From Clostridia bacterium (lineage in GTDB: Bacteria > Bacillota > Clostridia > Oscillospirales > RGIG577): a DNA stretch of 64,000 nt. The stretch's first letter is position 1; every line of letters starts with the position of its first letter. Positions 1 through 16,200 of this stretch are shown piece by piece. The notes under the pieces are model-generated. The model was given only the letters and a program-made list of their open reading frames with translations, had not been told where the DNA came from and did not search any database. The DNA lies in assembly GCA_017405765.1 (NCBI GenBank), contig JAFQZS010000005.1, positions 25,042-89,041 of the forward strand, written 5' to 3'. The position numbers and the translations under genes were made by a program.

Positions 1-777
1 TTTGAAAATCGCAGAATCCTGTTTGATATACTCGACTACTGCAGGCAAAAGGGGATACCTACGGTTTTTTGGAACAAAGAAGACCCTATAGGCGCGCTCG
101 ACACGCGATTTGACTTCGCCGATACTGCGCTGCACTTTGACCACATATTTACTACGGCGCAGGAGAGTGTGGACGAATACCGCAGACGCGGCGGCGAGAG
201 CGTTCATGTTTTGCCTTTTATGGTAAACACGGCTGTATATTATCCCGATAACGAGATAAAAGACGACAATCGTGTGCTTTTTGCAGGCGCATGGTATGAC
301 GACTTGCCGAGGCGCTGCCGAGATACGCGCGCTTTGTTTGATTATGTGCTTTCTTTGGGCATGGATCTGGATATTTACGACAGGCATTCGGAAAGCGTAG
401 AGGAACGATTTAAGTTTCCCGAAGAATACAGAGAGTATATACATAAGTCGATCCCGACAGACCGCGTTCCGGCTCTTATGCGTAAGTACAGTAAAGCGAT
501 AAACGTAAACACGATAACTGATTCAAAGACGATGTTTTCACGCCGCGCACTGCAGCTTGCGGCGTGCGGACTGAGTGTAATAAGCAATCCGTCGGAGGCT
601 ATGCAGCGCGCTCTGGGCGGGCGAAAAGTTACTGCACCGAACGGCGAATTTCTATTGTCTATTGAGGCAAATTCGGAGATGGTGCGAAGAGAGCACGCGG
701 CTTCAAAAGCGTTTGACTATGTGTTAAACACGCTTTTGAAGGAGGGCGTTTCTATACCCGAGGAAGTGTATGCATAG
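1..777 (+). CDS. CgeB-like glycosyltransferase, C-terminal part (gene truncated by the window start)
   Basis: Frame 1 is open from base 1 (FENRRILFDILDYCRQKGIPTVFWNKEDP...), so tracked ORF 169..777 is only the tail. The motifs FWNKEDP, VLFAGAWY and NVNT.TDS.TMFSRR parallel FYSKEDPPN, VLF[AS]GSW and N[IL]NSV.DS.TMF in the two downstream paralogous modules. Confidence 0.6.
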   Translation, partial: FENRRILFDILDYCRQKGIPTVFWNKEDPIGALDTRFDFADTALHFDHIFTTAQESVDEYRRRGGESVHVLPFMVNTAVYYPDNEIKDDNRVLFAGAWYDDLPRRCRDTRALFDYVLSLGMDLDIYDRHSESVEERFKFPEEYREYIHKSIPTDRVPALMRKYSKAINVNTITDSKTMFSRRALQLAACGLSVISNPSEAMQRALGGRKVTAPNGEFLLSIEANSEMVRREHAASKAFDYVLNTLLKEGVSIPEEVYA

Positions 778-2309
778 TGGATATTATCCGAAAGTTATAC
801 AGATCTTTTAAGAAAACTATATACTGTGTACGAAGGTTTTTCGTGCTGAAAATGCGTGATGAAACGGAGTATGCGCGCCTTTTGGAGAATCGGGAAAACT
901 TCCTGACAAGTAACGGCTCGCGTTTTTATGAGCGATCGACTTACAATATCGGTATCGTTGCCGACAGATTTATATACGACGGATATAAAGACACATGCAC
1001 TCTTAGGTATCTCACTCCCGATTGGGACGAAAACGACCTTGCCGATTTAGACCTTTTGCTTATCGTTTCGTCATGGCAGGGGTTGTCAGGCGAGTGGAAA
1101 GGCGTTACTTGGGAAGGCTCGAAACAGATGGAGAGACTTGCCGAGCTTATGCGCGCCGCGAAAAACAGAAAAATACGAACGGCATTTTATTCAAAGGAAG
1201 ATCCGCCGAATTTCAGTGTATTTTTGACATTTGCGAAGGAAGCGGAGATAATTTTCACGTCAGCAGAGGAATGCATTCCGAAATATAAAAAAGAATGCGG
1301 ACACGATAATGTGCATCTGCTGAGATTTGCGGTGAATCCGCATCTTTACAATCCCATCGGGATGTATAATTCAGACAGGGACAGAGACACTGTGCTTTTT
1401 GCCGGTTCATGGATCAAAAAGTACCCGCAGCGTATGCGCGAACAGGATATGCTGTTTGGGCTTATAACAAAAAACGGACTGAAGCTGCACATTTTAGACA
1501 GAAATGACAACCGAGGCGAGCTTACATATGAATATCCGATGCGGTGGCAGAAATACGTTATGCCGGCGGTAAAATATGACGACTTGCCTTATATATATAA
1601 GCAGCATGGATGGATCCTGAACTTAAATTCGGTCTATGACAGCCGCACGATGTTTTCTATGCGCGCTTATGATGCGCTTGCATGCGGATGCCTTGTCCTT
1701 TCTAATCCAAGCGAGGGCATGGAGCTTACGCTTCCCGAAGTGCTTGTAGTAAGAAATGAAGATGATTTTCATATTGTGACCGCGATGAGCGAGGACGAAA
1801 AGGAGTCTTTGAGGCTTGCCGGCATATCGAGAGTCATGAATGGAAATACAACATACGATCGCATGGAGTATATACTTGAAAAATGCGGTCTGGACGTTAG
1901 TCCGACCAAGAGAACGGCTGCGGTGATCGCGCTCGGCAGCGATGAAGAGATAAAGCGCCTTAGAGAGCAGTTTGATGCGCAGACATATCCCGATAAAATT
2001 TTTCTTACTCTAAAAGAAATCACATCAAGAAGCGGTGGATATGACGCCTTTGCGTTTTGGGGCGGCGGCTTAAATTACGGGGCGTACTATCTTGAAGATA
2101 TGATGAACGCCTTCAAGTACACGTTGTGTTCGTATGTGACGGTTAAAAACAGAGACGGCCATTCTTATACGGATACGGCGGAAGATATTTATAAAACAGT
2201 ATTTTGGGGCGCATGTTTTTCTCCCGACGAAGCTCTGAAGCTGTCACGTCAGGGAGTACATGCCGAAGGCGGATATGTTGTGCCGATAAACTATATAAAA
2301 GATATATGA
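777..2309 (+). CDS. CgeB-like (DUF3880 / Glyco_trans_1_2-type) glycosyltransferase
   Basis: 510 aa with FYSKEDPPNF, FTSAEECIPKYKKECGHDNV, VLFAGSW and LNLNSVYDSRTMFSMRAYDALACG. It is collinear with residues ~190-665 of the 1131-aa protein at 4401, including the YYLEDMMNAFKYT region. The GTG start overlaps the previous stop (ATAGTG); an alternative ATG lies at 852. Confidence 0.65.
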   Translation: MDIIRKLYRSFKKTIYCVRRFFVLKMRDETEYARLLENRENFLTSNGSRFYERSTYNIGIVADRFIYDGYKDTCTLRYLTPDWDENDLADLDLLLIVSSWQGLSGEWKGVTWEGSKQMERLAELMRAAKNRKIRTAFYSKEDPPNFSVFLTFAKEAEIIFTSAEECIPKYKKECGHDNVHLLRFAVNPHLYNPIGMYNSDRDRDTVLFAGSWIKKYPQRMREQDMLFGLITKNGLKLHILDRNDNRGELTYEYPMRWQKYVMPAVKYDDLPYIYKQHGWILNLNSVYDSRTMFSMRAYDALACGCLVLSNPSEGMELTLPEVLVVRNEDDFHIVTAMSEDEKESLRLAGISRVMNGNTTYDRMEYILEKCGLDVSPTKRTAAVIALGSDEEIKRLREQFDAQTYPDKIFLTLKEITSRSGGYDAFAFWGGGLNYGAYYLEDMMNAFKYTLCSYVTVKNRDGHSYTDTAEDIYKTVFWGACFSPDEALKLSRQGVHAEGGYVVPINYIKDI

Positions 2310-2322
2310 GTGAAATCAAATT

Positions 2323-3138
2323 ATGGGATATTTTAAATTTTTAAAAGAATCTACGCTTGATATTTTCCGCAACATGCGGCGAATATGGTCGCTTGCGGTA
2401 TTTGAATATAAAAGAGCCAATACCGATATGTTTTTGGGCGGGCTTTGGAAGTTTTTATCCCCGCTTTTGCAGATAGGCGTGTATTGGGTCGTTTTTGGAA
2501 TAGGGTTGAGGAATAATTCCGATATGAACGGGTTCCCGTTTGTGCTTTGGCTCACCTGCGGCCTTACGCCGTGGCTTATGATGAATCAGGGCGTGAATAC
2601 AGGCGCGGCGTCTGTCTTCAGAAAGGCGGGACTTCTTACAAAGTCGAATTTAAAAATGTCTATGATACCCGTAAGTTCGGTGCTGTCGGCGATCTTGAAT
2701 CAGATATGGACGGTGCTTATTCTGTTTGCAATATTTCTCCTTACGGGAGGCAGGATCTGGTGGACGTGCCTTGACCTGATATACTACGTTGTGTTCATGT
2801 TCGTGTTCGTGTCTGCTCTTTCTCAGGTCACGGCGGCATTTGTTGTGCTTGCGCGTGATTTTCAGAAGGTAGTGCAGAATGCAATGCGATTTCTGTTTTT
2901 CTTAAGCCCTATATTTTGGGAGGCTAATCCCAATATGCCATATGTGTTCCAGGTTTTTGACAAACTCAATCCTTTCGCATATGTTATAAGAGGCTTCAGG
3001 AACGCCATGCTCTATCACGTGCCGTTTTGGCACGAGATGAAGCTCGTCTGCGCATTCTGGCTGGCCGCAATAATTCTTCATATGATCGGCATTGCGCTTC
3101 AGATGAGGCTTCGCAACAACGTATTGGATTACGTATAA
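2323..3138 (+). CDS. ABC-2 type polysaccharide/teichoic-acid exporter permease (Wzm/TagG/KpsM-like)
   Basis: 271 aa, polytopic and hydrophobic (about 6 TM). Family-typical stretches include GGLWKFLSPLLQIGVYWVVFG and LNPFAYVIRGFRNA. It sits directly upstream of its ATPase partner. Confidence 0.8.
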   Translation: MGYFKFLKESTLDIFRNMRRIWSLAVFEYKRANTDMFLGGLWKFLSPLLQIGVYWVVFGIGLRNNSDMNGFPFVLWLTCGLTPWLMMNQGVNTGAASVFRKAGLLTKSNLKMSMIPVSSVLSAILNQIWTVLILFAIFLLTGGRIWWTCLDLIYYVVFMFVFVSALSQVTAAFVVLARDFQKVVQNAMRFLFFLSPIFWEANPNMPYVFQVFDKLNPFAYVIRGFRNAMLYHVPFWHEMKLVCAFWLAAIILHMIGIALQMRLRNNVLDYV

Positions 3139-3148
3139 GGATTATATT

Positions 3149-4303
3149 ATGGACGAATATGTAATAACAGCAAAAAATATTGAAAAAGAATATAAAATAT
3201 ATAGTAAAAAATCGCAGAAGTATCTTGATTTTTTTCTGCCGAAATCCTTTGGCACATCATTTTATGCGCTTGACAACGTTTCCTTTAATGTAAAAAAAGG
3301 GGAGTCGCTTGCGCTTATCGGTCTAAACGGCAGCGGGAAAACGACGTTGGCAAATATACTTGCAGGTGCGGCGGAGGTGTCGGGCGGAGAGCTTGAGACA
3401 AAGGGCAAGGTATCTATGATAGCCGTAAACGCGGGCGTCGATCAGTTTCTTACCGGTATGGACAACATAGTCCAAAAGGGCCTCATGCTCGGCCTGGATC
3501 ACAAACAGATACAGGAGCGCATACCCGAGATACTGGAATTTGCCGACCTGGGAGACTTTATCCATCAGCAGGTAAAGACATATTCGAGCGGTATGAGGGC
3601 AAGGCTCGGATTTGCCATTTCGATAAATATAGACCCCGATATAATGATAATAGACGAGGCGCTTTCCGTGGGCGACCCCACGTTTACTGAAAAATGTCTT
3701 GCGAAGATGAATGAATTCAGAAAAAACGGTAAGACGATAATATTTGTGAGCCATTCGATACCTCAGGTGCGAATGTTTTGCGATACGGCGCTGTGGCTTG
3801 AAGGAGGAAGAGTTAGAGAAGCGGGAAACTGCATGGACGTTACGTCGAAATATGTAAAGTTTGTACGCGATTTCAACTCGCTTGATAACGCCACGAGAAA
3901 AAAATACGTAAACAGCATTCGTGAGCGTCAGAGAAGAAAGGGCGACGGCGCGGTCGCAAAAGAGATACTCGAAAGCATGGAGGGCAAAGTCGAAGAAGGC
4001 GATATCACGGAGGCAAATCCCGAGGCTTACGTTGATATACCGGAATACGAGCTCGAGCTTGAGCATAAGGATAACGGAGAGCTCGTGATGCGGGCGGCGG
4101 GCGAACGCTGCGACAGCGTGCGCTTTGCCTGGTATATATATAAAAAAGGAGAGAAGAACCCGACAGTCAAAATGCCATACAAGTATGAACAGGAGAGCAC
4201 ATATACATTTGAAGAATCCGGAACATACAGGGCAAGGCTTTTCCTTTTGGCAAACGGCGAGATCAATATGATCACATCCGATTGGTTTGAGGTGGAGTTG
4301 TAA
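3149..4303 (+). CDS. ABC exporter ATP-binding protein (Wzt/TagH/KpsT-like) with a C-terminal extension ending in the shared module
   Basis: Walker A GLNGSGKTT, signature YSSGMRARLGFA, Walker B IMIIDEALSVGD and H-loop FVSHS. About 135 extra C-terminal residues end in RFAWYIYKKG...SGTYRARLF. SD AAGGA lies upstream. Confidence 0.85.
   Translation: MDEYVITAKNIEKEYKIYSKKSQKYLDFFLPKSFGTSFYALDNVSFNVKKGESLALIGLNGSGKTTLANILAGAAEVSGGELETKGKVSMIAVNAGVDQFLTGMDNIVQKGLMLGLDHKQIQERIPEILEFADLGDFIHQQVKTYSSGMRARLGFAISINIDPDIMIIDEALSVGDPTFTEKCLAKMNEFRKNGKTIIFVSHSIPQVRMFCDTALWLEGGRVREAGNCMDVTSKYVKFVRDFNSLDNATRKKYVNSIRERQRRKGDGAVAKEILESMEGKVEEGDITEANPEAYVDIPEYELELEHKDNGELVMRAAGERCDSVRFAWYIYKKGEKNPTVKMPYKYEQESTYTFEESGTYRARLFLLANGEINMITSDWFEVEL
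4043..4300 (+). repeat. Shared protein module, copy A (tail of the ABC ATPase)
   Basis: RFAWYIYKKG -27 aa- GTYRARLF. Confidence 0.6.
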
Positions 4304-4400
4304 AGAAGGGTAATGTTTTCTTAATTAAAGAATACTGTCAACATTGAAAAAGTCTTATTAAACATACAATATTTTCTCATTATGTGTTAAGGAGAACGAT

Positions 4401-7400
4401 ATGTCTTATAACGAAAACGATACCATTAATAAAACGGAAGTCGAATCAGGCAATGAACGCAATATGCAGAGTATTTCTTCGGAAGAAAAAGAACTTGACA
4501 CTTTAAGAAACGCCTACGCCGAGCTTTTAGATAAAATAAGCGCGCTTAACAACGAAAATTTGCGTATGCAGGCGCAGCTTAAAAAATCAGATGCACAGAT
4601 GAGAAAACTGCTCGATGAGAACGGCCGTATTAAGAAGCGTCTGTCGCAGGAAAAGGCTGCTGCGGAAAAAAATCTGCGCCGCTATGAGCAGGTCAATGCA
4701 AAATATGAAGCGCTTGCGAACTCGAAGCTTGGCAGGCTTACCTTGAACCATTGGGCGAAGCAGTCAAAAAAGAAAGGCGCAGGCAAGGGGATAGCAGGAC
4801 TTCCCGCAGTGGAGAAGTATTTTGATAAGCTGCCGACTGCGCAGGAGCTTGATCCGGAAATTGCTGCCTTGGATGAAGTTCCTGTAAGCGCGGACGACGC
4901 CAATATAGACAGAAATGCGCTTGAAACTTGGGTATATAAATATGATGAGGCGATAGAAGCACTGCCGGACAGCAACGGCATACGATATTACAATAAGGCG
5001 CAGTGCAGTATAGGAATTATTGCGGACGAGTTTTTTTACGAGTCCATAAGCGACGCGGCCGATTTCGTTTATGTTACGCCCGAAAACTATGAGAGCGTTA
5101 TAGCGGGAAAAGAAATCGACGTCTTGCTTTTTGTATCTGCTTGGCGCGGGCTTAACAATGAGTGGACAGGCATGGCTCAGTTAAACTCCAATCGGCGCAG
5201 CGTTGCCCTTGACCTTATTGCAAAGTGTAAAGAAAACGCCATACCGACCATATTCTACTCAAAAGAGGATCCGCCAAACTACGAGCGGTTTATTGAATAT
5301 GCAAAGCAGTGCGACTGTGTTTTCACGTCCGCATCGGAATGTATACCGTATTACAAAGAAGATTGCGGGCATGACAGAGTATATGAGCTTATGTTCGGTA
5401 TAGATCCCGCCGTACATAATCCCATAGGATTCTATAAAGAAGAAAAAGATAAAACCGTGCTCTTTTCCGGTTCGTGGATGGAGAAGTATCCCAATAGATG
5501 CAGGGAGCTTTCTTTGATATTTAACGGTATACTGCGCTCGGATTATGACCTCCATATAGTTGACCGTAATTACGGCAATGAAAGGTATCAATATCCGCCG
5601 CAGTACAATCGCTATGCATCTCCCGCCGTAGATCATAAAAAACTTCAGAAGCTGCACAAGCAGTTTGACTGGGCCGTAAACATCAATTCCGTAACGGACA
5701 GCGAAACAATGTTCGCAAACCGCACGTTTGAGCTTCAGGCTGCGGGCGTACTTCTTTTATCAAATTACAGTGTCGGCGTAAACAATGTGCACCCGACGGT
5801 GTTCATGGCTCATGAATCGCTTGAAGTCGATAAGATACTGCAAGGATTTACGGATGAGGAGCGTTACGAACATCAGATCGCGGGCATACGCTCCGTTATG
5901 ACAGGGCATACATGCTTTGACAGGATCGAGTCGTTATTGGCGCCTATAGGTATAGACGCCGCTCAACCCAAAAGAAAGATACTTGTAATTGCACAAACGC
6001 TTGACGACGGCGTTAAGGCGTCGTTTGAGCGTCAGACGTATGAGAACAAAACGCTTATGCTGCAGTCAGAAATAAACGGCGAAGTTTTATCGCAGTATGA
6101 TATGGTAACATGGTTCGACGCCGGCGCATATTACGGAGAGTTTTATCTTGAGGATATGATAAACGCCTTTAAGTATACGGCCTGCGACTATATTACGAAG
6201 GACGCATATTTTAAGGACGATATATTGAATGCAGGCACAGAACATAATTATGTAAATAAAATGCGCAGTGCTTACCGCACCGTATTCTGGCGTGAAGCGT
6301 TCGATTCAGAATTTTTCTTAAGCGTACCCTCCGAGTGCGAGCTGCCAGGCGGATATTCTATAGACCGCTTTTCTTACCGCGAAGGCGCGCACGAGACGCC
6401 TGTCCGCGAAAAACCGTATCTTTTATCGGTGATAATTCCTGTATACAATAACGGCGCGCACCTTTACGGCAAGTGCTTTGCAAGCCTTAGACGCAGTTCG
6501 ATGTTTGACGACATGGAGATAATAATGGTGGACGACGGCTCCACCGATGAGCGGACATTGAAAATTGAAACGTATCTTTCCGACCGATATGCGAATGTAA
6601 AAAGATATGCCTTTGAAGACGGCGGAAGCGGTTCGGCTTCCCGTCCCAGAAATAAAGGCGTTGAGCTTGCTTCGGCTGAGCATATCACTTTTTTGGACCC
6701 CGACAACGAGGCTATTGATGACGGTTACGCTCAGCTTTATACATATGTGTGTGATGAAAACCTTGACATAGCGTTCGGAAATATATATCGCTGCACAGAA
6801 AAAACGCAGTTGTTTAATTATTATTACAATATCGGCAGACGCGCGGGAACGACCTTCTTTGAGCATGGGCTTAAGGAATATATGGCTCGCACCGATTTTT
6901 ATGCGGTCAGCATTCAGGCCATGATAATACGCCGTGAGATCATTATGAAAAACGGTTTTGAACAGGTGCCGGGCGCAGCCGGTCAGGATACGCTCTTCTG
7001 CTGGCAGCTTTTCTCTTGCGCAGACAGAATACGCGCTTTGGAGTTTCCAATACATATATACTATGCGCAGACGAGCGGTTCGGTAACCAATGCCGTAAGT
7101 ACGAAGTTCTTTGATAAGCTTATGCTGCTTCAGCAGCCAAAGATAGACTGGTTAATAAGTGAGAATCTATTAGAAGATTATATGCGTACGCGTCACGATA
7201 CATACGTTAAGGGTTGGATATTCCAGAAGCTGAGCCGTGCGAGAGAGGAAGAGCTGTGTACAAAGAAGGTCAAGGAAATACTGGATCTGTACGAACCGTA
7301 TTATAAGCGGACAGATGAGCTTATAAATGAGTTTATTAAGGATTGCGAAGACGAAAAGTATAACGATGCATTTTCGCTTGTAAAAAAAGAATTTGCAGAA

Positions 7401-7796
7401 ACCAAAAAACGTCCCATGCCTACGCTTGAGGAACTGACAGAACAGATAAAGGCAGATAAACAAAGGCAGAGCACGCCTAAACAGTTCGATATAAGATATA
7501 CGATAAACGGCAGCAAGGTAAGCCTTACTAATTTAAGCAGATCGAAAAAAGGCGCACAATATGCGTGGTCGGTGTTGTTTGATACTAAAACGTATAAAAA
7601 AGTATACGTATCAAAATATACAAACAGTAATAATTTTAGTTATGATTTTTCTGATCTGTCGGAGGGCAAGTATAAAATCAGAGCGTTTATAATGCGCGGC
7701 GGCGATAAAATATCTGAGGATACATTGTATATTACGCTTACGCATGATAGAATAATATTCGTAAACAAGAATTTATCATTAGCTGTCGAAGAGTAA
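4401..7796 (+). CDS. Multidomain glycosyltransferase: N-terminal coiled coil + CgeB-like GT module + GT2 (GT-A) module + C-terminal shared module
   Basis: 1131 aa. Res ~25-115 is a heptad-rich coiled coil (LDTLRNAYAELLDKISALNNENLRMQAQLKK...). The CgeB-like module has FYSKEDPPNY and VLFSGSW. The GT2 signature is SVIIPVYNNGAHL, IMVDDGSTD and FLDPDNE. The tail carries QYAWSV...GKYKIRAF. SD AAGGAG lies 8 nt upstream. Confidence 0.75.
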   Translation: MSYNENDTINKTEVESGNERNMQSISSEEKELDTLRNAYAELLDKISALNNENLRMQAQLKKSDAQMRKLLDENGRIKKRLSQEKAAAEKNLRRYEQVNAKYEALANSKLGRLTLNHWAKQSKKKGAGKGIAGLPAVEKYFDKLPTAQELDPEIAALDEVPVSADDANIDRNALETWVYKYDEAIEALPDSNGIRYYNKAQCSIGIIADEFFYESISDAADFVYVTPENYESVIAGKEIDVLLFVSAWRGLNNEWTGMAQLNSNRRSVALDLIAKCKENAIPTIFYSKEDPPNYERFIEYAKQCDCVFTSASECIPYYKEDCGHDRVYELMFGIDPAVHNPIGFYKEEKDKTVLFSGSWMEKYPNRCRELSLIFNGILRSDYDLHIVDRNYGNERYQYPPQYNRYASPAVDHKKLQKLHKQFDWAVNINSVTDSETMFANRTFELQAAGVLLLSNYSVGVNNVHPTVFMAHESLEVDKILQGFTDEERYEHQIAGIRSVMTGHTCFDRIESLLAPIGIDAAQPKRKILVIAQTLDDGVKASFERQTYENKTLMLQSEINGEVLSQYDMVTWFDAGAYYGEFYLEDMINAFKYTACDYITKDAYFKDDILNAGTEHNYVNKMRSAYRTVFWREAFDSEFFLSVPSECELPGGYSIDRFSYREGAHETPVREKPYLLSVIIPVYNNGAHLYGKCFASLRRSSMFDDMEIIMVDDGSTDERTLKIETYLSDRYANVKRYAFEDGGSGSASRPRNKGVELASAEHITFLDPDNEAIDDGYAQLYTYVCDENLDIAFGNIYRCTEKTQLFNYYYNIGRRAGTTFFEHGLKEYMARTDFYAVSIQAMIIRREIIMKNGFEQVPGAAGQDTLFCWQLFSCADRIRALEFPIHIYYAQTSGSVTNAVSTKFFDKLMLLQQPKIDWLISENLLEDYMRTRHDTYVKGWIFQKLSRAREEELCTKKVKEILDLYEPYYKRTDELINEFIKDCEDEKYNDAFSLVKKEFAETKKRPMPTLEELTEQIKADKQRQSTPKQFDIRYTINGSKVSLTNLSRSKKGAQYAWSVLFDTKTYKKVYVSKYTNSNNFSYDFSDLSEGKYKIRAFIMRGGDKISEDTLYITLTHDRIIFVNKNLSLAVEE
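7485..7739 (+). repeat. Shared protein module, copy B (tail of the 1131-aa glycosyltransferase)
   Basis: QYAWSVLFDT -30 aa- GKYKIRAF. Confidence 0.6.
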
Positions 7797-7814
7797 TTCT
7801 GAGAGGAGACTAAT

Positions 7815-8084
7815 ATGGAAATAAAAAGTATAGATGCGTTCGACCTGTTTCATAACGGTACGATCGTATTAAAAACCAATACAGAAGAGCTTTCCGAGGG
7901 GTATGTTTTCGCATGGCGCGTGATAAACAAAAAGAACGACAAAACGGTATTTAAAAGCGGATATATTTCCGATCCGTTTATATCATGTAAAATCAAAGGT
8001 TTTGGCGATTATACGATAACGGCATATGTCCTTAATGAGAAAAACGGCGAAAAAATAAGCGCTGAGACGGAGTTTACGGCAGAT
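7815..8084 (+). repeat. Shared protein module, copy C1 (stand-alone protein, first half)
   Basis: VFAWRVINKK -27 aa- GDYTITAY. Confidence 0.55.
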
Positions 8085-8390
8085 AAAAATACGTCGTACG
8101 CTCTTACGAGCGGATACAGTGAGATAGCGGAGATAGAGCCGATCGCTGAACATATAAGCGGACCGTTCTGGCGCTTTTCTCCGGATAGTGAACCGCCAAA
8201 GGACGCTCAATTTGCATGGTACATATATAAAAAAGGCGATGTCGATCCTATGCATAAGCAGATGTTTACCGAGTTTCCCACATATGAATACAAATTTACA
8301 CAGGAGGGAACGTACAGAGCAAAGCTGTTTATCAGCTTCAAAAAAGCAAAGCGCAGTGAGTTTTCGGATTGGTTTGACGTTGTGCTTTGA
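7815..8390 (+). CDS. Stand-alone protein made of two tandem copies of the shared module (no catalytic domain recognised)
   Basis: 191 aa. Copy 1 has YVFAWRVINKK...GDYTITAY and copy 2 has QFAWYIYKKG...GTYRAKLF. SD GAGGAG lies 7 nt upstream. No signal peptide or TM segment. Confidence 0.7.
   Translation: MEIKSIDAFDLFHNGTIVLKTNTEELSEGYVFAWRVINKKNDKTVFKSGYISDPFISCKIKGFGDYTITAYVLNEKNGEKISAETEFTADKNTSYALTSGYSEIAEIEPIAEHISGPFWRFSPDSEPPKDAQFAWYIYKKGDVDPMHKQMFTEFPTYEYKFTQEGTYRAKLFISFKKAKRSEFSDWFDVVL
8127..8387 (+). repeat. Shared protein module, copy C2 (stand-alone protein, second half)
   Basis: QFAWYIYKKG ... GTYRAKLF. The DNA core at 8211-8236 is 24/26 identical to 4124-4149. Confidence 0.6.
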
Positions 8391-8408
8391 TTTTGTTAGG
8401 AGTTAAGT

Positions 8409-9605
8409 ATGAAGTATCCCGTTAAAAGGCTTTCCGTGGAAGAACTCAACAAAGAACCCTTTTGCCCGGAACAGCCTACCATTTACGAAATCATCTGGGG
8501 AAAAACAAAATATGAGCTTCTCGTAAACTATGTACCCAATTCGCGAAAAATGGCAGCTTTCGGTACGGGCACGGTCAACAGGAACAGAGGTCTGCCTGAT
8601 TTTAAGCGCAACAGCTGGTACCCTGATATACCGGTCACCTCGATATGGTATGCCGACCCTACGCTTTACGAGGGGGAGTTGTCGCTTTACTGGTATTACG
8701 GCACCAACAAAAGATGGCATCTTAAGAATATTGCCTTCTTACTGGCTGCGATCGCAAAAAAGCATATGATCTCTTTGGAGGACTCTCTGTTTTTCGGTTC
8801 ATCGGGCGGGGGCTACTCTTCGCTCGTGCTTGCGACATTGCTTCACGGCAAGGCTTATGTAATAAATCCGCAGATATTTTTGGAAAATTATTTTGAGGCT
8901 CATTATAAAAAGTTCCTTGCAGACGTATTGTCAAAGGGCGAGAAGCCGGCAGAAGAACGCATAAGTATTATTTCTCTTTTTAAGGCTGAGCGTTATATAC
9001 CCAGAATACATTATGTACAGAACATGCAGTCCGTACATGATATACGTCTCCAGGTGACGCCGTTTCTTCGCGGAATATCCGAAGGAAATATGGACTGCAG
9101 CGATACTATAAGCATGGAGTTTTTCTATGCGGAGGGCGGTCATAACGCTATGCCCGACAAGGATCGTTCGCTTGTGCTGATAGCGCGCGGATTAGAGGAT
9201 AAGGCAACGGGCGTTGCGATAAACGCCGACGAGGAAAAGCATCAAAAGCTCACCTTCTTTGAACGAGTAAGCTGCGCGGATTTTAAAAATACGGGCACAT
9301 ATCTTCTGTTTGACGAGCTTGATGAATTCGGCGCAGTCTATAAGGGCGCGAAAACTGAGATATCGTCGGGAAATCTGTGTTATGATCTTGCGATCCCGAA
9401 ACGATCTGTGTCGGGATATACGTTTTCATATTATCTAATGGCAGACAAAGTAACGGCGGCCAAGCTTCCATATTCGGACAGCACAAAGGCGGAGTTTAAA
9501 CTTCTGTCGCCGGGACGATACAAGATAAAATGCTTTGTGCTGAAAGATGACGCAAAGCTTTCATTCGTATCAGACGAGATAACAGTCAAATCAACTGACG
9601 TTTAA
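8409..9605 (+). CDS. Alpha/beta-hydrolase-fold protein (putative glycan esterase/acyltransferase) with C-terminal shared module, paralog 1
   Basis: 398 aa with nucleophile elbow FFGSSGGGYSS and a candidate catalytic His in YAEGGHNAMPDK. It is ~55-60% identical by eye to the next gene over the catalytic part. SD AGGAG upstream. No signal peptide. Confidence 0.6.
   Translation: MKYPVKRLSVEELNKEPFCPEQPTIYEIIWGKTKYELLVNYVPNSRKMAAFGTGTVNRNRGLPDFKRNSWYPDIPVTSIWYADPTLYEGELSLYWYYGTNKRWHLKNIAFLLAAIAKKHMISLEDSLFFGSSGGGYSSLVLATLLHGKAYVINPQIFLENYFEAHYKKFLADVLSKGEKPAEERISIISLFKAERYIPRIHYVQNMQSVHDIRLQVTPFLRGISEGNMDCSDTISMEFFYAEGGHNAMPDKDRSLVLIARGLEDKATGVAINADEEKHQKLTFFERVSCADFKNTGTYLLFDELDEFGAVYKGAKTEISSGNLCYDLAIPKRSVSGYTFSYYLMADKVTAAKLPYSDSTKAEFKLLSPGRYKIKCFVLKDDAKLSFVSDEITVKSTDV
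9345..9602 (+). repeat. Shared protein module, copy D (tail of hydrolase paralog 1)
   Basis: TFSYYLMAD -25 aa- GRYKIKCF. Confidence 0.55.
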
Positions 9606-9619
9606 AAAGGAGTAGTTCT

Positions 9620-10819
9620 TTGGATTACGATATCAGAGAGTTAAATATAGAAGATATATATAAAGAGACGTTTAAACCAAAAAAGATCACGCTTTATAAA
9701 ATAATATGGGACGGAGTGACTTATGATTTTCTAATAAATCATGTGTCGGGCTCCAAAGTCATGGCGGCGTTCGGCACGGGAACGATGTCGAACCGTGCCC
9801 TGAAGCTTCCGTTTTTTGCAAGGTTGAGCTGGTATCAGAGTATCCCAGTGACCTCGGTGTGGTACGCAGACCCCACGCTTTATGAGGGGAAGCTGAAGCT
9901 TTATTGGTATTACGGCACGAATAAAAAATGGTATCTTGAAAACATAGCCTTTCTTTTGTCCGTCATATCGAAAAATATGGGCGTTGATGTTGCCAAGTCG
10001 CTTTTTTTCGGCTCATCGGGCGGCGGATATTCTTCGCTCGTGCTTGCAACGATGCTGCGCGGCAAGGCTTATGTGATAAACCCGCAGATTTTTTTGTACA
10101 ATTATAATGAGATACATTATAAACGTTTTGTGGCGGACAGGTGTCCCGAAGGAGAAAAACCGAAAGAAGAAAGAACGAATCTCTTAAAGCTGTGCGAGCG
10201 TGAGCGCTATATACCAAGAACATACTGCCTGCAGAATATACGCGACGTGCGTGACATTGATAAGCAAATAACGCCGTTTCTCTCTGAGATAGCCCATAAC
10301 GCCTACGATTGCGGTGAGGCTGTTACAATGGACTTTTATTACGACGAAAAAGGCCACAACGGTATGCCTGACAAGGCGACGACGCTTGAATTTATTAAAA
10401 AAGGCCTCTTGGACAAAAGAAAAGGCAAGGAGCTCTTGCTTGAGAAAAGATCCGGCAATAGTCTTAGCTTTTTTGAGCGCATTTACGATCTCAACTTAAG
10501 AAGCGCTGATGCGCATATAACGTATGCTAACAAAACGAAGCCGCACGAGATCATGAAGGGCGTAAATATCGAGTGGCAGAAGGACGGAAGCCTTTTATGC
10601 ACTGCCGAAACGTATACGCAGTCAGAGGATTATCTGTTTGCCTTTAATCTTATAAGCTCCAAAAACCGCATATACAAAAAAAGGGCATATTCTCCCGAAA
10701 AGTCGTGCCGGTTTGAAGGTATACCCGATGATACATATACATTGAATAGTTTTGTAAAATCCGGAGCCATCACCGAGATGGTAAAAGTCGTTATTCCCCC
10801 CAAAAAAACGGAGGTATAA
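9620..10819 (+). CDS. Alpha/beta-hydrolase-fold protein with C-terminal shared module, paralog 2 (tandem duplicate)
   Basis: 399 aa with FFGSSGGGYSS and YDEKGHNGMPDK. The TTG start is supported by AAGGAG 8 nt upstream and by N-terminal alignment with paralog 1. Confidence 0.6.
   Translation: MDYDIRELNIEDIYKETFKPKKITLYKIIWDGVTYDFLINHVSGSKVMAAFGTGTMSNRALKLPFFARLSWYQSIPVTSVWYADPTLYEGKLKLYWYYGTNKKWYLENIAFLLSVISKNMGVDVAKSLFFGSSGGGYSSLVLATMLRGKAYVINPQIFLYNYNEIHYKRFVADRCPEGEKPKEERTNLLKLCERERYIPRTYCLQNIRDVRDIDKQITPFLSEIAHNAYDCGEAVTMDFYYDEKGHNGMPDKATTLEFIKKGLLDKRKGKELLLEKRSGNSLSFFERIYDLNLRSADAHITYANKTKPHEIMKGVNIEWQKDGSLLCTAETYTQSEDYLFAFNLISSKNRIYKKRAYSPEKSCRFEGIPDDTYTLNSFVKSGAITEMVKVVIPPKKTEV
10559..10816 (+). 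repeat. Shared protein module, copy E (tail of hydrolase paralog 2)
   Basis: LFAFNLISS -26 aa- DTYTLNSF. This is the most divergent copy. Confidence 0.45.
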
Positions 10820-10917
10820 ACACGAACCGTTAACGGCGGTGATCTCAATTCCGCAGGACGAGCTGTTTTTTGAGAAACCGATAATCAATGGGTCTAAAAT
10901 AAATATTGACAAGCAAA

Positions 10918-13023
10918 ATGAAGAATACAGAGTATGAGTTTGTACCGTTTTCGGGTGAAGTTACTCAAAATAATTTCAAAGAAGAATTGAATAATGGCTT
11001 TTATATACCTCCTCAGTTCTATTTCAGCAGCAAAGAAATACCAAACACCGCAAAGAGCATTACGGAAGGCGTTTTGTTTGTCCATCGTGCTGTTTCGGGA
11101 GTTGAGTATGACCTTGAAACGTTCGACTGGAATTTATCGGTCTCAAAACAGGCGGAAACGTTTCAATTATATCTTCAGGCATTAACACCTGTTGCAGTGT
11201 TGGCAAGAGCATATGAGATGACCGGCAACAGGAGTTTTCTTGAGTTTGCAGAAAGAATGATCATAGAATGGTGGAAATATGCTTCTGATAAAAAGAGTTC
11301 AGATGAAAACCGCAGAGTTTGGACAGATCATTCCGTTGCGTTAAGAACGGAGATCCTTATGTATTTTGGTCGTGTGATCAAGACGGCCGGATATGGAAGT
11401 GACGAGCTATATTCTTCGCTTTATGATATACTCAATATTCAAGGTAAGTGGCTTTACGAAACGCCGGGTTATGCAAAGAATCATAATCACGGCATAATGC
11501 ACGATAAAGGCTTGTTGTTTTTAAGCGTTCAACTTAAGAAAAAAGAATGGTACCTTAGAGCAAAGAACCGTATTTTAACCCAAGAGAAATGGGCGTTCGC
11601 CGCTGATAACGTACATAAAGAAAATTCTCCCGCTTATACCGGCGTGGCAAGAAATTGGTTCATAGATATCGGCACGTTTTTGTCAGAATGGGGAGATCCG
11701 GCCGGCGATAAGATACTCAAAGACATGGAAAGGGTGCAGGAATATATCGATTGGGCTACGAAGCCTAACGGTATAATAGCGCAGGTGGGCGATACCGGAA
11801 ACATACCTGGCAAAAAATACGGTTATCCTGACAAAATGAAACGGCGATCGAAGGATATACACGCCATGTTTCCTGTAAGCGGCATATATTTCTATCGCTC
11901 AAATATCGATAGTGAAAGTATGCTTGATACATGGAAAACGATAAAGTCGGGATTCGTCAGAAAAACGCATAAGCATGCAGATGACGGTTCGTTTATTCTT
12001 TATTCAAAAGGATATGAAATTTTCGTTGACTGCGGCGTATACGGATATGCAAACGATGATTTCCGAAAATATATAATATCGGCAAAAGCGCATAATACGG
12101 TGATCGTAGACGATGAGTCATACGATATAGATGAAAAAAATGCAGAGCGCGCAGGTGTAGAGGGATGGGCGTTTTTTGAGGAATATGACCATATAAGAAC
12201 GTTTAATAATATATATCCCGGAGTACAGATAAAAAGAGATTTTTGTTCAGCCGATGATCTGACGATCATATATGATTCTTTGGAATCCGAACAACAGCAT
12301 ACTTATTCGCAGCTGTTTCATTTGGGAGAAGATATATCCGTTTTGTCTTCCGATGACAGAGAAGTCGTGATGCAGATTGCCGACACGGATCACATCGTGC
12401 GTATAAGACAGCACGGTTCTCCCGTTAAGCTGTCAATATTGTGCGGCGATTTGAGCAAATCCGATTATGGCCTTATATCGAGAGGGATAAATCATTTAGA
12501 CGTAATATCCACTCTGAAATTTGATATAAGCGGCACAAATGCAGAATTTATTACGTCAATAACAATAGAAGATACTAAAGGCAATATTAGATTGTATGAT
12601 AAAACAGTTCCTGTTGATAGTCTCGTATATAAGTCCGAAGAACGCACGTTTGAGATAGATTCGCTGAGAATAAACTGCAAAGAGGAGCTTTTTTCGGCCG
12701 GTCAGATATCGAAACGAGTATCATATGGCAACGATAAAAGTGACGCCATATGCGGTTTTGTTTACGGATACGGTTATAAAGTCGTTGAAAATGAATTAAG
12801 GTTCTCCCTTGATCTAAAAGAAGATAAGCCAAAAGACGTTGAATTTGCCTATTATTTGCTCAGCGGAGGGAAAATACTAAGAAAAGCAGGATATTCAAAG
12901 TGCGAAAGTGTGGTATTCGACGAGATAAAGCGCGGCAATAGTTATCGAATCAAATATTTCATAAAAAGAAAAACAGAAAGAATGGCGTTTGTGTTAAAAG
13001 AAACTGAAGATTTTAATATATAA
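10918..13023 (+). CDS. Heparinase II/III-like (alginate-lyase-like N-terminal plus Hepar_II_III C-terminal) protein with C-terminal shared module
   Basis: Family-typical NHNHGIMHDKGLLFL, HKHADDGSFILYSKGYEIFVDCG and AKAHNTVIVDD. No signal peptide. ATG at 10918 is preferred; the tracked ORF starts at in-frame TTG 10906. No strong SD for either start. Confidence 0.65.
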   Translation: MKNTEYEFVPFSGEVTQNNFKEELNNGFYIPPQFYFSSKEIPNTAKSITEGVLFVHRAVSGVEYDLETFDWNLSVSKQAETFQLYLQALTPVAVLARAYEMTGNRSFLEFAERMIIEWWKYASDKKSSDENRRVWTDHSVALRTEILMYFGRVIKTAGYGSDELYSSLYDILNIQGKWLYETPGYAKNHNHGIMHDKGLLFLSVQLKKKEWYLRAKNRILTQEKWAFAADNVHKENSPAYTGVARNWFIDIGTFLSEWGDPAGDKILKDMERVQEYIDWATKPNGIIAQVGDTGNIPGKKYGYPDKMKRRSKDIHAMFPVSGIYFYRSNIDSESMLDTWKTIKSGFVRKTHKHADDGSFILYSKGYEIFVDCGVYGYANDDFRKYIISAKAHNTVIVDDESYDIDEKNAERAGVEGWAFFEEYDHIRTFNNIYPGVQIKRDFCSADDLTIIYDSLESEQQHTYSQLFHLGEDISVLSSDDREVVMQIADTDHIVRIRQHGSPVKLSILCGDLSKSDYGLISRGINHLDVISTLKFDISGTNAEFITSITIEDTKGNIRLYDKTVPVDSLVYKSEERTFEIDSLRINCKEELFSAGQISKRVSYGNDKSDAICGFVYGYGYKVVENELRFSLDLKEDKPKDVEFAYYLLSGGKILRKAGYSKCESVVFDEIKRGNSYRIKYFIKRKTERMAFVLKETEDFNI
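12772..13020 (+). repeat. Shared protein module, copy F (tail of the heparinase II/III-like protein)
   Basis: EFAYYLLSGG -26 aa- NSYRIKYF. Confidence 0.55.
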
Positions 13024-13101
13024 TATTATCCTTATAGAACGATAAATGATCTGCGTGTTAAATTTGCAATACACTTTTTGAGCGGTAATTTTTTAAATGT
13101 A

Positions 13102-13131
13102 TTGCATTTTATATACGGCATATTATATAAT
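13102..13131 (+). promoter_or_regulatory. Candidate sigma-A promoter for wecB-glmS
   Basis: TTGCAT (13102-13107), 18-nt spacer, TATAAT (13126-13131), in the AT-rich gap upstream of wecB. Confidence 0.35.
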
Positions 13132-13198
13132 AAATATAATATCATTTGTCATTTTATATGCCAAATTGTATAACCTCATAAAAGAAAGGGTTATTTTC

Positions 13199-14317
13199 AT
13201 GAAAAAAGTTATGCTTGTCTTCGGAACGCGTCCCGAAGCGATAAAGATGTGCCCCCTTGTAAATGAATTAAAAAAGAGACCTTCCATCGAGACTGTTGTC
13301 TGCGTAACGGGCCAGCACAGGCAGATGCTCGATCAGGTGCTCGATGCATTTAACGTCGTGCCTGATTATGACCTCTCGGTAATGAAGGAGCGTCAGACGC
13401 TTTTTGACGTTACCTCAAATATCCTGCTTAAGATAAAAGAGGTGCTTGAGGAGGTGAAGCCCGACGTTGTGCTCGTTCACGGCGATACGTCAACTACGTT
13501 CGTTACGGCGCTGGCGTGCTTCTATCTGCAGATACCTGTCGGACATGTAGAGGCGGGTCTTCGCACCCACAACATCTATTCGCCGTTCCCTGAGGAGTTC
13601 AACCGTCAGGCCGTGGGCATAATAAGCAAGTATAACTTTGCGCCGACCAAGGCGTCGAGGGACAACCTGTTAAGAGAAGGCAAGCCGGAGGACTCTATCT
13701 TCGTTACGGGCAATACGGCTATAGACGCGCTTAAAACTACCGTAAAAGAGGACTATACTCATCCGCAGCTTGAGTGGGCGAAGGGAAGCAGACTTATCTT
13801 GATCACAGCACATCGCCGCGAAAATCTGGGACAGCCTATGCGAAATATGTTCCGCGCTATCCGCAGAGTTTGCGACGAGCATCCCGATATAAAGGCGATA
13901 TATCCGATACATATGAACCCTGTTGTACGCGAAACGGCTAATGAGGAATTGGGCGGCGACGAGCGCATTCGTATAATAGAGCCTCTTGACGTGCTTGATT
14001 TCCATAACTTTATGGCTAAGAGCTATCTCATCCTTACCGACTCGGGCGGCATACAGGAGGAGGCGCCCTCGCTTGGCAAGCCTGTGCTTGTTATGCGCGA
14101 CACGACCGAGCGCCCTGAAGGAATACGCGCCGGTACGCTTCAGCTTGTCGGCACAGAGGAAGAGAACATATATCGCACGTTCAAATCACTTTTGGAAGAA
14201 GATCAGTTATACCGCGCCATGAGTACGGCAAGCAATCCGTACGGCGACGGACAGACGAGCCGCAGAATTGCAGATATCCTCGAAGGAAAACGAGAGAATA
14301 TCACATTCGAAGGCTGA
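13199..14317 (+). CDS. wecB: UDP-N-acetylglucosamine 2-epimerase (non-hydrolysing)
   Basis: MKKVMLVFGTRPEAIKMCPL, HGDTSTT, HVEAGLRT and TDSGGIQEEAPSLGKPVLVMRDTTERPEG. The internal ATG at 13199 has SD AAAGAAAGGG upstream. The tracked 13097 start adds an implausible AT-rich extension. Confidence 0.9.
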   Translation: MKKVMLVFGTRPEAIKMCPLVNELKKRPSIETVVCVTGQHRQMLDQVLDAFNVVPDYDLSVMKERQTLFDVTSNILLKIKEVLEEVKPDVVLVHGDTSTTFVTALACFYLQIPVGHVEAGLRTHNIYSPFPEEFNRQAVGIISKYNFAPTKASRDNLLREGKPEDSIFVTGNTAIDALKTTVKEDYTHPQLEWAKGSRLILITAHRRENLGQPMRNMFRAIRRVCDEHPDIKAIYPIHMNPVVRETANEELGGDERIRIIEPLDVLDFHNFMAKSYLILTDSGGIQEEAPSLGKPVLVMRDTTERPEGIRAGTLQLVGTEEENIYRTFKSLLEEDQLYRAMSTASNPYGDGQTSRRIADILEGKRENITFEG

Positions 14318-14337
14318 TAAATAAAGGAGAAAGCAGT

Positions 14338-16200
14338 ATGTGTGGAATCGTAGGCTTTATAGGAAGACATGACGCAGCGCCGATTTTACTGGATGGACTT
14401 TCTAAGCTTGAATACCGCGGTTATGACTCGGCAGGTCTGGCGGTACGAGATGAAAAAGGGAATTTTGAAGTTGTGAAAGCCAAGGGGCGTCTTCTCAATC
14501 TTTATGAGAAAACGGATTCCGGCAAAGCGCTTCACGGAACGATAGGCATAGGCCATACGCGCTGGGCTACGCACGGCGAACCGAGCGAGACGAACGCTCA
14601 TCCCCATATATCCGGCTCCGATGTGGATGACTCCATGGTAGTCGGCGTACATAACGGCATCATAGAAAACTATGTCGAGATGAAGGACAAGCTTTTAAGA
14701 AAAGGCTATAAGTTTTACTCCGAGACTGATACCGAAGTAATGGTCAAGCTTGTAGACTATTATTACAAAAAGTATCAATGTCCTCCCGGAGAAGCTATTG
14801 CCAAGGCGATGGTGCGCGTAAGAGGTTCGTATGCTCTTGTGCTTATGTTCAAGGACCATCCCGACGAGATATGGGCTGCAAGAAAAGATTCGCCGATGAT
14901 AATAGGCATATGCGACGGGGAAACTTATGTTGCATCCGATGTGCCGGCAATTTTAAAGTATACTAAAAACGTATACTACATCGGCAATATGGAGATCGCG
15001 CGCCTTAAAGAAGGCACGGCGGAATTTTTCAATATCGACAGCGAGCCGCTCGAAAAGGAGCTCGTTGAGATAACATGGGACGCCGAAGCTGCCGAAAAGG
15101 GCGGCTACGAGCACTTTATGATGAAAGAGATACATGAGCAGCCGCGCGCTATTACCGATACGCTCAACAGTCTCATCAAGGGAGAGAGAAACGAACGCAG
15201 GATAGATTTTGAATCTATCGGAATTTCCGATGAAGATATAAAGAATATTTCTCAAATATATATCGCGGCATGCGGCTCTGCATGGCATGTCGGTATGGCG
15301 GCGCAGTATGTCCTTGAGGATCTGGCGCGCATTCCCGTTAGAGTGGAGCTTGCGTCTGAGTTCAGATACCGTGATCCCATACTTGATAAAAACGGTCTTG
15401 TTATCGTTATAAGCCAGTCGGGAGAGACGGCGGACAGCCTTGCCGCTCTAAGAGAGGCTAAGGAAAAAGGCATAAAGACGCTTGCCATAGTAAACGTTGT
15501 GGGTTCGTCTATAGCCCGTGAAGCCGACTATGTGCTTTACACCGTATCGGGTCCGGAGATAGCCGTTGCTACGACAAAGGCGTATTCAACGCAGCTTGTG
15601 GCAATGTATCTTGTGGCAATACAATTCGGCGCGGTTCGCGGTTGTATCGATGAAGAAAAGTACGCTTACTATATTTCCGAGCTTTATACGCTGCCGGATA
15701 AGATAGAGAAGATTTTTGAAACAAAAGAAAAGCTGCAGTGGTTCGCTGCCAAATTCGTAAATGTTCATGACGTTTTCTTTATCGGCAGAAGTATTGACTA
15801 CGCCGTATCGCTTGAGGGCAGTCTCAAGATGAAGGAGATATCATACGTTCATTCAGAGGCTTATGCGGCAGGTGAATTGAAGCATGGCACGATAAGCATG
15901 ATCGAAGACGGTACGCTTGTTATAAGTGTGATCACGCAGCCGCAGCTTTATGAAAAGACGATATCCAATATGGTAGAGTGCAAAGCGCGCGGCGCATATC
16001 TTGCGGCTATAACGACTTACGGGCATTACGACGTAGAGGACAGGGTAAACTTTGTTACGTATATTCCCAACGTCGATCCGCACTTTATGGGAAGCCTGAG
16101 CGTTATCCCGCTTCAGCTGTTGGGTTATTATCTGAGCCTAAGCCGCGGGCTTGACGTAGATAAGCCGCGAAATTTGGCAAAATCGGTAACGGTTGAATGA
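14338..16200 (+). CDS. glmS: Glutamine--fructose-6-phosphate aminotransferase (isomerising)
   Basis: MCGIVGFIG N-terminal Cys amidotransferase domain, two SIS domains (SQSGETADSL) and C-terminal KPRNLAKSVTVE. SD AAGGAG upstream. Only 20 nt separate it from wecB. Confidence 0.95.
   Translation: MCGIVGFIGRHDAAPILLDGLSKLEYRGYDSAGLAVRDEKGNFEVVKAKGRLLNLYEKTDSGKALHGTIGIGHTRWATHGEPSETNAHPHISGSDVDDSMVVGVHNGIIENYVEMKDKLLRKGYKFYSETDTEVMVKLVDYYYKKYQCPPGEAIAKAMVRVRGSYALVLMFKDHPDEIWAARKDSPMIIGICDGETYVASDVPAILKYTKNVYYIGNMEIARLKEGTAEFFNIDSEPLEKELVEITWDAEAAEKGGYEHFMMKEIHEQPRAITDTLNSLIKGERNERRIDFESIGISDEDIKNISQIYIAACGSAWHVGMAAQYVLEDLARIPVRVELASEFRYRDPILDKNGLVIVISQSGETADSLAALREAKEKGIKTLAIVNVVGSSIAREADYVLYTVSGPEIAVATTKAYSTQLVAMYLVAIQFGAVRGCIDEEKYAYYISELYTLPDKIEKIFETKEKLQWFAAKFVNVHDVFFIGRSIDYAVSLEGSLKMKEISYVHSEAYAAGELKHGTISMIEDGTLVISVITQPQLYEKTISNMVECKARGAYLAAITTYGHYDVEDRVNFVTYIPNVDPHFMGSLSVIPLQLLGYYLSLSRGLDVDKPRNLAKSVTVE

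Follow-up and report, generated by a model that had tools for sequence, protein, structure and literature searches.

An Ig-like domain shared by the exporter ATPase and neighbouring proteins of a cell-wall glycopolymer locus in an uncultured ruminant-gut Clostridia bacterium

How polymerisation, modification and export of a surface glycan are coordinated in pathways dependent on ATP-binding cassette (ABC) transporters is, to our knowledge, understood for only a few Gram-negative O-antigen prototypes. In systems of the E. coli O9a type, the C-terminal beta-sandwich of the exporter ATPase Wzt binds the chain-terminating residue and licenses export. The question arises again for a stretch of 64,000 nucleotides (positions 25,042 to 89,041 of contig JAFQZS010000005.1, assembly GCA_017405765.1; hereafter the window) from an uncultured Clostridia bacterium of the ruminant gut. 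This stretch carries an ABC-transporter-dependent cell-wall glycopolymer cluster with a TarGH/TagGH-like exporter and precursors of the N-acetylmannosamine (ManNAc)/uronic-acid type, and an initial annotation had described one C-terminal module on its exporter ATPase and on the enzymes encoded downstream. What is this module, which proteins carry it, and what might it do for the assembly of a wall polymer?

The seven segments of ~80 residues that had been proposed, distributed over six consecutive proteins, were all found again at their coordinates and in frame on the forward strand, and they are homologous. A profile of six copies was used to score the left-out copy against the six-frame translation of the whole window (1,188 open reading frames, ORFs), and each copy was recovered in this way with an E-value between 1.3e-6 and 1.5e-12. 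The segments are the tail of the ATPase (residues 299-384; 4043..4300; E 1.5e-12), a copy near the C-terminus of a dual glycosyltransferase (GT; 7485..7739; E 7.9e-9), two copies in a 191-residue protein (7815-8084 and 8127-8387; E 1.3e-6 and 9.6e-11), one copy in each of two hydrolase-like paralogs (9345-9602 and 10559-10816; E 9.7e-9 and 3.2e-7) and one in a heparinase-like protein (12772-13020; E 1.7e-7). The best non-members in these scans reached E 0.5-2.2 and at most 6.7 bits. All seven copies conserve the patterns [FY]-[AS]-[WFY]-x-[VIL] and G-x-Y-x-[AILV]-x-x-[FY]. Pairwise identity ranges from 43% over 60 residues, between the tail of the ATPase and the C-terminal half of the 191-residue protein, down to marginal values. 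The identical DNA core of 24/26 nucleotides noted between 4124-4149 and 8211-8236 is real.

Could the resemblance be a matter of chance or composition, or the domain be strewn randomly through the genome? Several pairs of copies are only 15-23% identical and single copies fall under Pfam thresholds, as such a reading would have it, yet we consider it very improbable, and for the window it is refuted. The leave-one-out values of 1e-6 to 1e-12 stand against a best background of 0.5 or more, the models described below are confident beta-sandwiches, and orthologous tails are kept in other genomes. The module is also concentrated in the locus rather than scattered: the seven-copy profile finds no eighth copy elsewhere in the 64 kb (next match E 0.74), which leaves the other ~55 kb with none, and the chance that six tailed genes placed at random among ~55 would all adjoin is ~2e-6.

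The distribution within the locus is narrower than first described. That every downstream enzyme is tagged applies to the exporter and the next five proteins, and does not extend to WecB and GlmS. The module is also absent from the upstream GTs and from the UDP-sugar dehydrogenase, and so it marks the exporter and the five proteins that precede the precursor genes, not every enzyme. The tails are therefore selective: they sit on proteins predicted to act on the polymer, and precursor enzymes and single-module GTs are without them. The description of the copies as C-terminal ends needs one correction, as the copy in the dual GT is followed by 18 further residues. None of the six tailed proteins has a transmembrane (TM) segment or a signal-like N-terminus, in agreement with the initial annotation (maximal 19-residue hydropathy at most 1.25, versus 2.49 in the permease), and the ATPase copy is cytoplasmic because it is fused to the nucleotide-binding domain (NBD).

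The module is a divergent cytoplasmic branch, ~85 residues long, of the Y_Y_Y/PKD/fibronectin type III (Fn3)-like, that is immunoglobulin (Ig)-like, superfamily, with a beta-sandwich fold. Its suspected resemblance to Y_Y_Y was borne out below threshold: single copies score 17-23 bits on PF07495 (at most 22.6, in the 398-residue hydrolase-like protein), and a two-copy protein of the related locus L008 scores 25.4 bits, where the gathering cutoff is 26.6. PKD, PKD_3 and MtxA_IG-like are further sub-threshold Pfam matches, and the seven-copy profile pulls out bona fide Y_Y_Y proteins that score 57-137 bits on PF07495. AlphaFold2 applied to the seven-copy alignment yielded an eight-strand all-beta domain (pLDDT 82), for which the best Foldseek matches in the PDB are fibronectin type III domains (E ~2e-3, TM-scores 0.6-0.68), including that of the glycosyltransferase POMGNT2. 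Searched by profile, PDB sequences yielded no significant match; the highest-ranking was the PKD domain of 2C26 (E 0.12). Module and Y_Y_Y domain, the latter found in Bacteroides hybrid two-component sensors and secreted Firmicutes enzymes, share motif pattern and Ig-like fold. Classical Y_Y_Y members are extracytoplasmic, whereas the window copies are cytoplasmic, fused to glycan-assembly proteins and under the gathering cutoff.

The tail had also been called the exporter's recognition-type domain. In the sense of family membership this does not hold, since a Wzt_C match is absent even at E<=10 and the top 50 Foldseek matches in the PDB are Fn3 domains, with no Wzt carbohydrate-binding domain (CBD) among them. 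The tail occupies the place of the Wzt CBD and is unrelated to that domain.

The protein that bears this tail is encoded at 3149..4303 (+) and consists of an NBD (residues 1-~255), a charged linker (~256-298) and the Ig-like domain. Directly upstream lies the gene of an ABC-2 type permease (2323..3138, +; TagG/Wzm-like, PF01061, E 1.1e-13), a polytopic membrane protein with 42 hydrophobic windows and no module. The ATPase matches TarH (6JBH) over residues 3-262 with E 8e-88 and reaches 337 bits on the teichoic-acid export model PRK13545 of NCBIfam (equivalog cutoff 538) and 294 bits on PRK13546 (cutoff 320). Of the initial label "Wzt/TagH-like", the TarH/TagH half thus stands and Wzt is further off; the 404-residue A. 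aeolicus Wzt (7K2T/8DKU) aligns to residues 10-246 only, which is the NBD. Both the NBD match and the permease gene recall the TarGH/TagGH teichoic-acid exporters, and judging by homology the exporter is a TarH/TagH-like NBD and permease pair, whose substrate may be teichoic acid or another glycopolymer. The window ATPase is longer than the three best-matching solved TarH/TagH chains, which have no room for an appended domain because they comprise 264-280 residues. B. subtilis TagH bears a different extension.

The tail of the ATPase has a particular counterpart in the free two-copy protein. Profiles for the first (d1) and second (d2) domains were built from the two-copy proteins of other organisms, with the window sequences left out, and on these the window tail is of the d2 type, with 77.6 bits on d2 versus 33.6 on d1. 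The ATPase tails of the window and L008 both score 78 bits on d2 versus 34-37 on d1, and the remaining tails 9-34 on either. In two further loci (L021 and L022) the ATPase tails are of a different type, not d2.

The two-copy protein itself (191 residues; 7815..8390, +) contains d1 (7815-8084), d2 (8127-8387) and a flexible linker. Modelled by AlphaFold2 with 22 homologs, it forms two such domains (pLDDT 91.3) joined by a low-confidence linker at residues ~91-110, and resembles tandem-Fn3 proteins. Packing of d1 against d2, taken as a proxy for docking between modules, had no confident mutual orientation in this model (pTM 0.52). The ~190-residue two-copy family comprises at least 22 clusters at 50% identity and is unannotated apart from occasional weak Y_Y_Y matches, some members having precomputed PF07495 matches. 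Word-indexed protein searches, whether started from the 191-residue protein or from the seven-copy alignment, retrieved no proteins but those of the organism itself.

The other tailed proteins are candidate polymer-acting enzymes. The dual GT (1131 residues; 4401..7796, +) has a Glyco_trans_1_2-like module and a GT2 module by Pfam, followed by the Ig-like tail, and its N-terminus is a probable coiled coil (residues ~24-115, nucleotides ~4470-4745) judging by weak matches to coiled-coil families. The homologous segment in L020 is a separate 130-residue ORF (7557-7949) that overlaps the end of a tail-less ATPase gene; in L020, L023 and L024 this segment ends ...YEDLANSKLGKL..., and it recalls the coiled-coil rulers of O-antigen terminators. 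Chain-terminating activity is not recognisable in the dual GT, nor is a terminator of the methyltransferase, kinase or Kdo-transferase type recognisable in the window. The 398-residue hydrolase-like protein (8409..9605, +) and its 399-residue paralog (9620..10819, +) share a GSSGGG nucleophile-elbow-like motif and weak similarity to the XcbB/CpsF capsule proteins across 8409-10819. They have no Pfam family and no sequence relative in the PDB, and could represent acyl- or esterase-type enzymes of an uncharacterised, polymer-modifying family. The heparinase II/III-like protein (10906..13023, +; PF07940, E 3.6e-26), whose start gene callers place at 10918 rather than 10906 (701 residues), is cytoplasmic, no signal peptide being seen. 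It may be a biosynthetic lyase- or epimerase-like enzyme; no literature was found that ties cytoplasmic heparinase-like proteins to biosynthetic epimerases.

We then asked how far this arrangement extends beyond the window; related loci carry labels such as L008. The locus-wide sharing of the tail recurs in related genomes, namely L008/L019 and L020-L025. A genome scan with the ATPase found one close relative, L008, from a sister metagenome-assembled genome (RGIG5637, sheep duodenum) and continued by L019. Its ATPase is 90% identical to that of the window and is preceded by the same genes, and its downstream set is larger: L008/L019 holds at least 15 module copies in 11 consecutive proteins. 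These are the ATPase, a 1044-residue dual GT with N- and C-terminal copies, a 202-residue two-copy protein, a 1309-residue dual GT, both hydrolase-like paralogs, two more two-copy proteins, a 1272-residue double heparinase-like protein and proteins of 750 (a weak match) and 516 residues. The 1272-residue protein (L019, 11225-15043) is built from a pair of heparinase II/III-like units separated by one module copy, and the two-copy proteins of this locus come from three separate genes.

Other loci carry different enzyme sets. In L021 and L022 the tailed ATPase is directly followed by a two-copy protein, and both encode a 921-residue Glucos_trans_II (GtrII-like) protein (L021 14075-16840, L022 12011-14776) with four tandem C-terminal copies after ~10 TM helices. 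These four copies probably lie outside the cytoplasm, in which case the same module would serve both sides of the membrane within one locus. L022 also has an 852-residue protein with two copies, and a methyltransferase-GT2 fusion is present in L021. L020, L023 and L024 combine a tail-less 269-residue ATPase, the separate 130-residue coiled-coil ORF, a 676-residue GT and a two-copy protein with one tailed enzyme, deacetylase-like or heparinase-like, and L025 has two two-copy proteins and five tailed proteins. The two-copy protein is present in every such locus examined and is their most constant element. No module was found in ten distant TagH-like loci of unrelated phyla, and a metagenome scan with the d2 alignment gave four loci only, two of them from near relatives.

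The superfamily as a whole is far more widespread. A profile search of 1.84 billion representative proteins gave 394 matches at E<=1e-3. Among the best 150 of these, ~71 have signal-peptide-like N-termini, 22 are ~190-residue two-copy proteins and 13 resemble the window proteins in their catalytic cores. The last group includes dual GTs, hydrolase-like and heparinase-like proteins, the tailed ATPase and another ATPase whose four copies are N-terminal. Many of these best matches have 4-12 tandem copies, as relatives in surface proteins; the seven multi-repeat matches that were checked on Pfam are genuine Y_Y_Y, some of them fused to subtilase, GH18 or leucine-rich repeats. P0089, a protein of the representative library (964 residues), is an ABC ATPase with four N-terminal module copies, an NBD at residues 476-714 and a proline-rich, extensin-like C-terminus, the opposite order to that of the window ATPase. 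As far as these matches tell, the superfamily is generic, yet its cytoplasmic branch appears concentrated in the enzyme types of these glycan loci.

Across genomes, module instances cluster by the type of their host protein and not by locus; the copy of the dual GT, for instance, groups with the GT tails of L008/L019. Concerted evolution, under which the tails of one locus would be alike, is rejected, as the tails cluster by host protein. Since they do, the fusions are old and vertically kept rather than products of recent shuffling or gene conversion. The ratio of nonsynonymous to synonymous substitution between the window and L008/L019 is 0.09-0.19 for the tails and 0.06-0.15 for the catalytic cores; the tails are thus under purifying selection comparable to that on the cores. 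The ATPase tail is 85% identical to that of L008, versus 94.5% for the NBD, and the L019 ortholog of the 399-residue paralog retains its tail (72% identical).

Two elements of this arrangement are already known: glycan-binding modules fused to exporters, and Ig-like tails on enzymes that act on teichoic acid. Like the module on the window ATPase, the Wzt CBD (E. coli O9a, R. terrigena, A. aeolicus) is fused C-terminally to an ABC-2 exporter NBD. It binds glycan, works in trans and can also function when it is a polypeptide of its own (PMC9445017), a parallel to the free two-copy protein of the window. It is without sequence relation to the module and differs from it in fold, being a jelly-roll that dimerises by C-terminal strand exchange (PMC9445017) as against a modelled Fn3/Ig-like domain of ~85 residues. 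Moreover, the Wzt domain is not common to biosynthetic enzymes and the window module is. In S. aureus, the C-terminal tandem Ig-like, carbohydrate-binding module (CBM)-like domains of TarS raise processivity on teichoic acid and mediate oligomerisation (PMC5156392). TarS is similar in being a cytoplasmic enzyme with C-terminal Ig-like domains that acts on a lipid-linked wall polymer exported by a TarGH-type system, but its domains resemble the CBM48/CBM68 starch-binding modules, form a trimer and have not been reported from the exporter or the enzymes around it. An Ig-like putative CBM was also described in the terminator/polymerase ORF6 of K. pneumoniae O7, with none seen in other terminators (PMC11231755). 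ORF6 likewise belongs to an ABC-dependent pathway, combines a coiled coil with a dual-GT architecture in one large protein and has an Ig-like domain of unknown role; that domain lies between kinase and coiled coil, not at the C-terminus, and is not common to Wzt. Our literature searches gave no account of a Y_Y_Y/Ig-like domain common to a glycan exporter ATPase and its neighbouring enzymes, and none of the two-copy protein family.

What, then, does the shared domain do? From its distribution, it probably tethers the polymer-making, polymer-modifying and polymer-exporting proteins to one substrate or to each other. By analogy with the known systems, the modules are quite possibly polymer-recognition tethers that are CBM-like in function. 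Their tails would hold the predicted polymer-acting proteins, that is the exporter ATPase, the coiled-coil dual-GT polymerase, the two hydrolase-like modifiers and the lyase/epimerase-like protein, on the nascent undecaprenyl-linked chain, so that processivity would rise and modification would be coupled to export. The tail of the ATPase would then take the positional role of the Wzt CBD, and the free two-domain protein, whose d2 is of the ATPase-tail subtype, could act in trans, bringing the chain to the transporter or keeping it there. We favour tethering to the polymer because the tags fall on proteins whose expected substrate is a lipid-linked polymer and because the Wzt CBD and the TarS Ig-like domains are precedents for beta-sandwich modules fused to exporters or enzymes. 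Recurrence with different enzyme sets also counts for it, as do the restriction of the homologous copies to the locus, their cytoplasmic location, the purifying selection on the tails, the Ig-like putative CBM of K. pneumoniae O7 and the presence of the POMGNT2 Fn3 domain among the fold matches. Substrate binding fits better than specific docking because the module is also found on GT-C-type proteins, after ~10 TM helices, and on secreted GH18 and subtilase proteins. Several observations weigh on the other side. The conserved residues alternate like core positions of a beta-sandwich, and a shared exposed site was not identified; copies within the locus are 15-43% identical and cluster by host, where one identical ligand predicts otherwise. 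The lack of kinship with the Wzt CBD, the absence of a recognisable capping enzyme from the window and the tail-less ATPase of the L020/L023/L024 lineage point the same way, and we know of no established role for a non-catalytic bivalent glycan binder in the cytoplasm.

A different, more doubtful explanation is that the modules form a docking code, pairing Ig-to-Ig to join polymerase, modifiers and exporter into one cytoplasmic machine, with the two-domain protein as a bivalent adaptor that would bind the d2-type ATPase tail through d2 and the enzyme tails through d1. The architecture of the two-copy protein would suit such an adaptor, since it consists solely of two well-folded domains and their flexible linker; it is the most constant element of the loci, and the ATPase tail is specifically d2-type. 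The tails moreover retain a host-specific identity under purifying selection, as would be expected of surfaces for specific docking. In Bacteroides hybrid two-component sensors, the Y_Y_Y domain sits at the dimer interface. The TarS Ig-like domains likewise make a trimerisation interface (PMC5156392), and Wzt CBDs dimerise (PMC9445017). Docking is opposed by the uncertain d1-d2 packing, by the L021/L022 ATPase tails, which are not d2-type, and by module copies that lie beyond the reach of a cytoplasmic code, on secreted enzymes and on portions of GtrII-like proteins that are probably extracytoplasmic. There may, though this is less likely than not, be a cytoplasmic "Ig-tag" code, in which one Ig-like family would mark all polymer-acting parts of a Gram-positive glycopolymer pathway, polymerase, modifiers and exporter alike, and a dedicated family of two-domain adaptors would build the machine or pass the finished chain on to the transporter; coupling of this kind would differ from cap recognition by the Wzt CBD. 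It is rather unlikely that the module is a passive or self-oligomerising appendage, spread by duplication and fusion and serving each protein separately in solubility, membrane spacing or homo-oligomerisation, with no function shared at the level of the system. Ig-like and Fn3-like domains are common spacers, with the tandem-repeat relatives in surface proteins as examples, the copies have strongly diverged from one another, and some related loci do with a tail-less ATPase. But a passive element would hardly be confined to polymer-acting proteins and the exporter, to the exclusion of precursor enzymes, in a pattern seen again in lineages whose enzyme sets differ; the two-copy protein, which has no catalytic part, forms a conserved family of its own, and selection on the tails matches that on catalytic cores.

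The locus lies in a single same-strand block of closely spaced genes (169-16200). It begins with two Glyco_trans_1_2/DUF3880-type GT genes by Pfam (169..2309, +), neither with a profile match to the module: the 3' part of a 382-residue gene (169-777, +), the whole of which is visible in L001, and a 510-residue gene (777-2309, +). Downstream of the heparinase-like gene, the same operon-like block ends with the precursor enzymes WecB (UDP-GlcNAc 2-epimerase; 13097-14317, +) and GlmS (14338-16200, +). L001, a sheep-gut metagenome contig identical to the window, adds a GT2 and the UDP-sugar dehydrogenase to the block just upstream, both without the module. GC content is 0.41-0.47 in the glycan block versus mostly 0.47-0.54 in the remainder, and the glycan loci of L020, L023 and L024 (positions 1-700) start beside a phage-type integrase gene; both observations point to a glycan island that is variable and possibly mobile. 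Outside the block, the window carries housekeeping genes (glycolysis, RNase R, GlmU-like, Mfd), and among them lies a gene for a bacterial serpin (38024-39301, -; PF00079, E 4.8e-49). The gene at 21477-22997 (-) encodes a protein that combines SLH domains with a non-specific endonuclease domain and an Ada Zn-binding domain. SLH domains tether proteins to ManNAc-containing pyruvylated cell-wall polysaccharide, and the glycan locus could therefore produce such an anchor polymer.

In this bacterium, a domain different from the Wzt module takes that module's place on a TarH-like ATPase and also decorates the neighbouring enzymes, and it is accompanied by a conserved two-domain protein. Should these tags prove to bind the polymer or one another, they would offer a simple, testable handle on coupling in Gram-positive wall-polymer assembly. 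They would also provide a sequence signature by which polymer-acting enzymes without an assigned function, the hydrolase-like and heparinase-like proteins among them, could be picked out in Clostridia of the gut and rumen.

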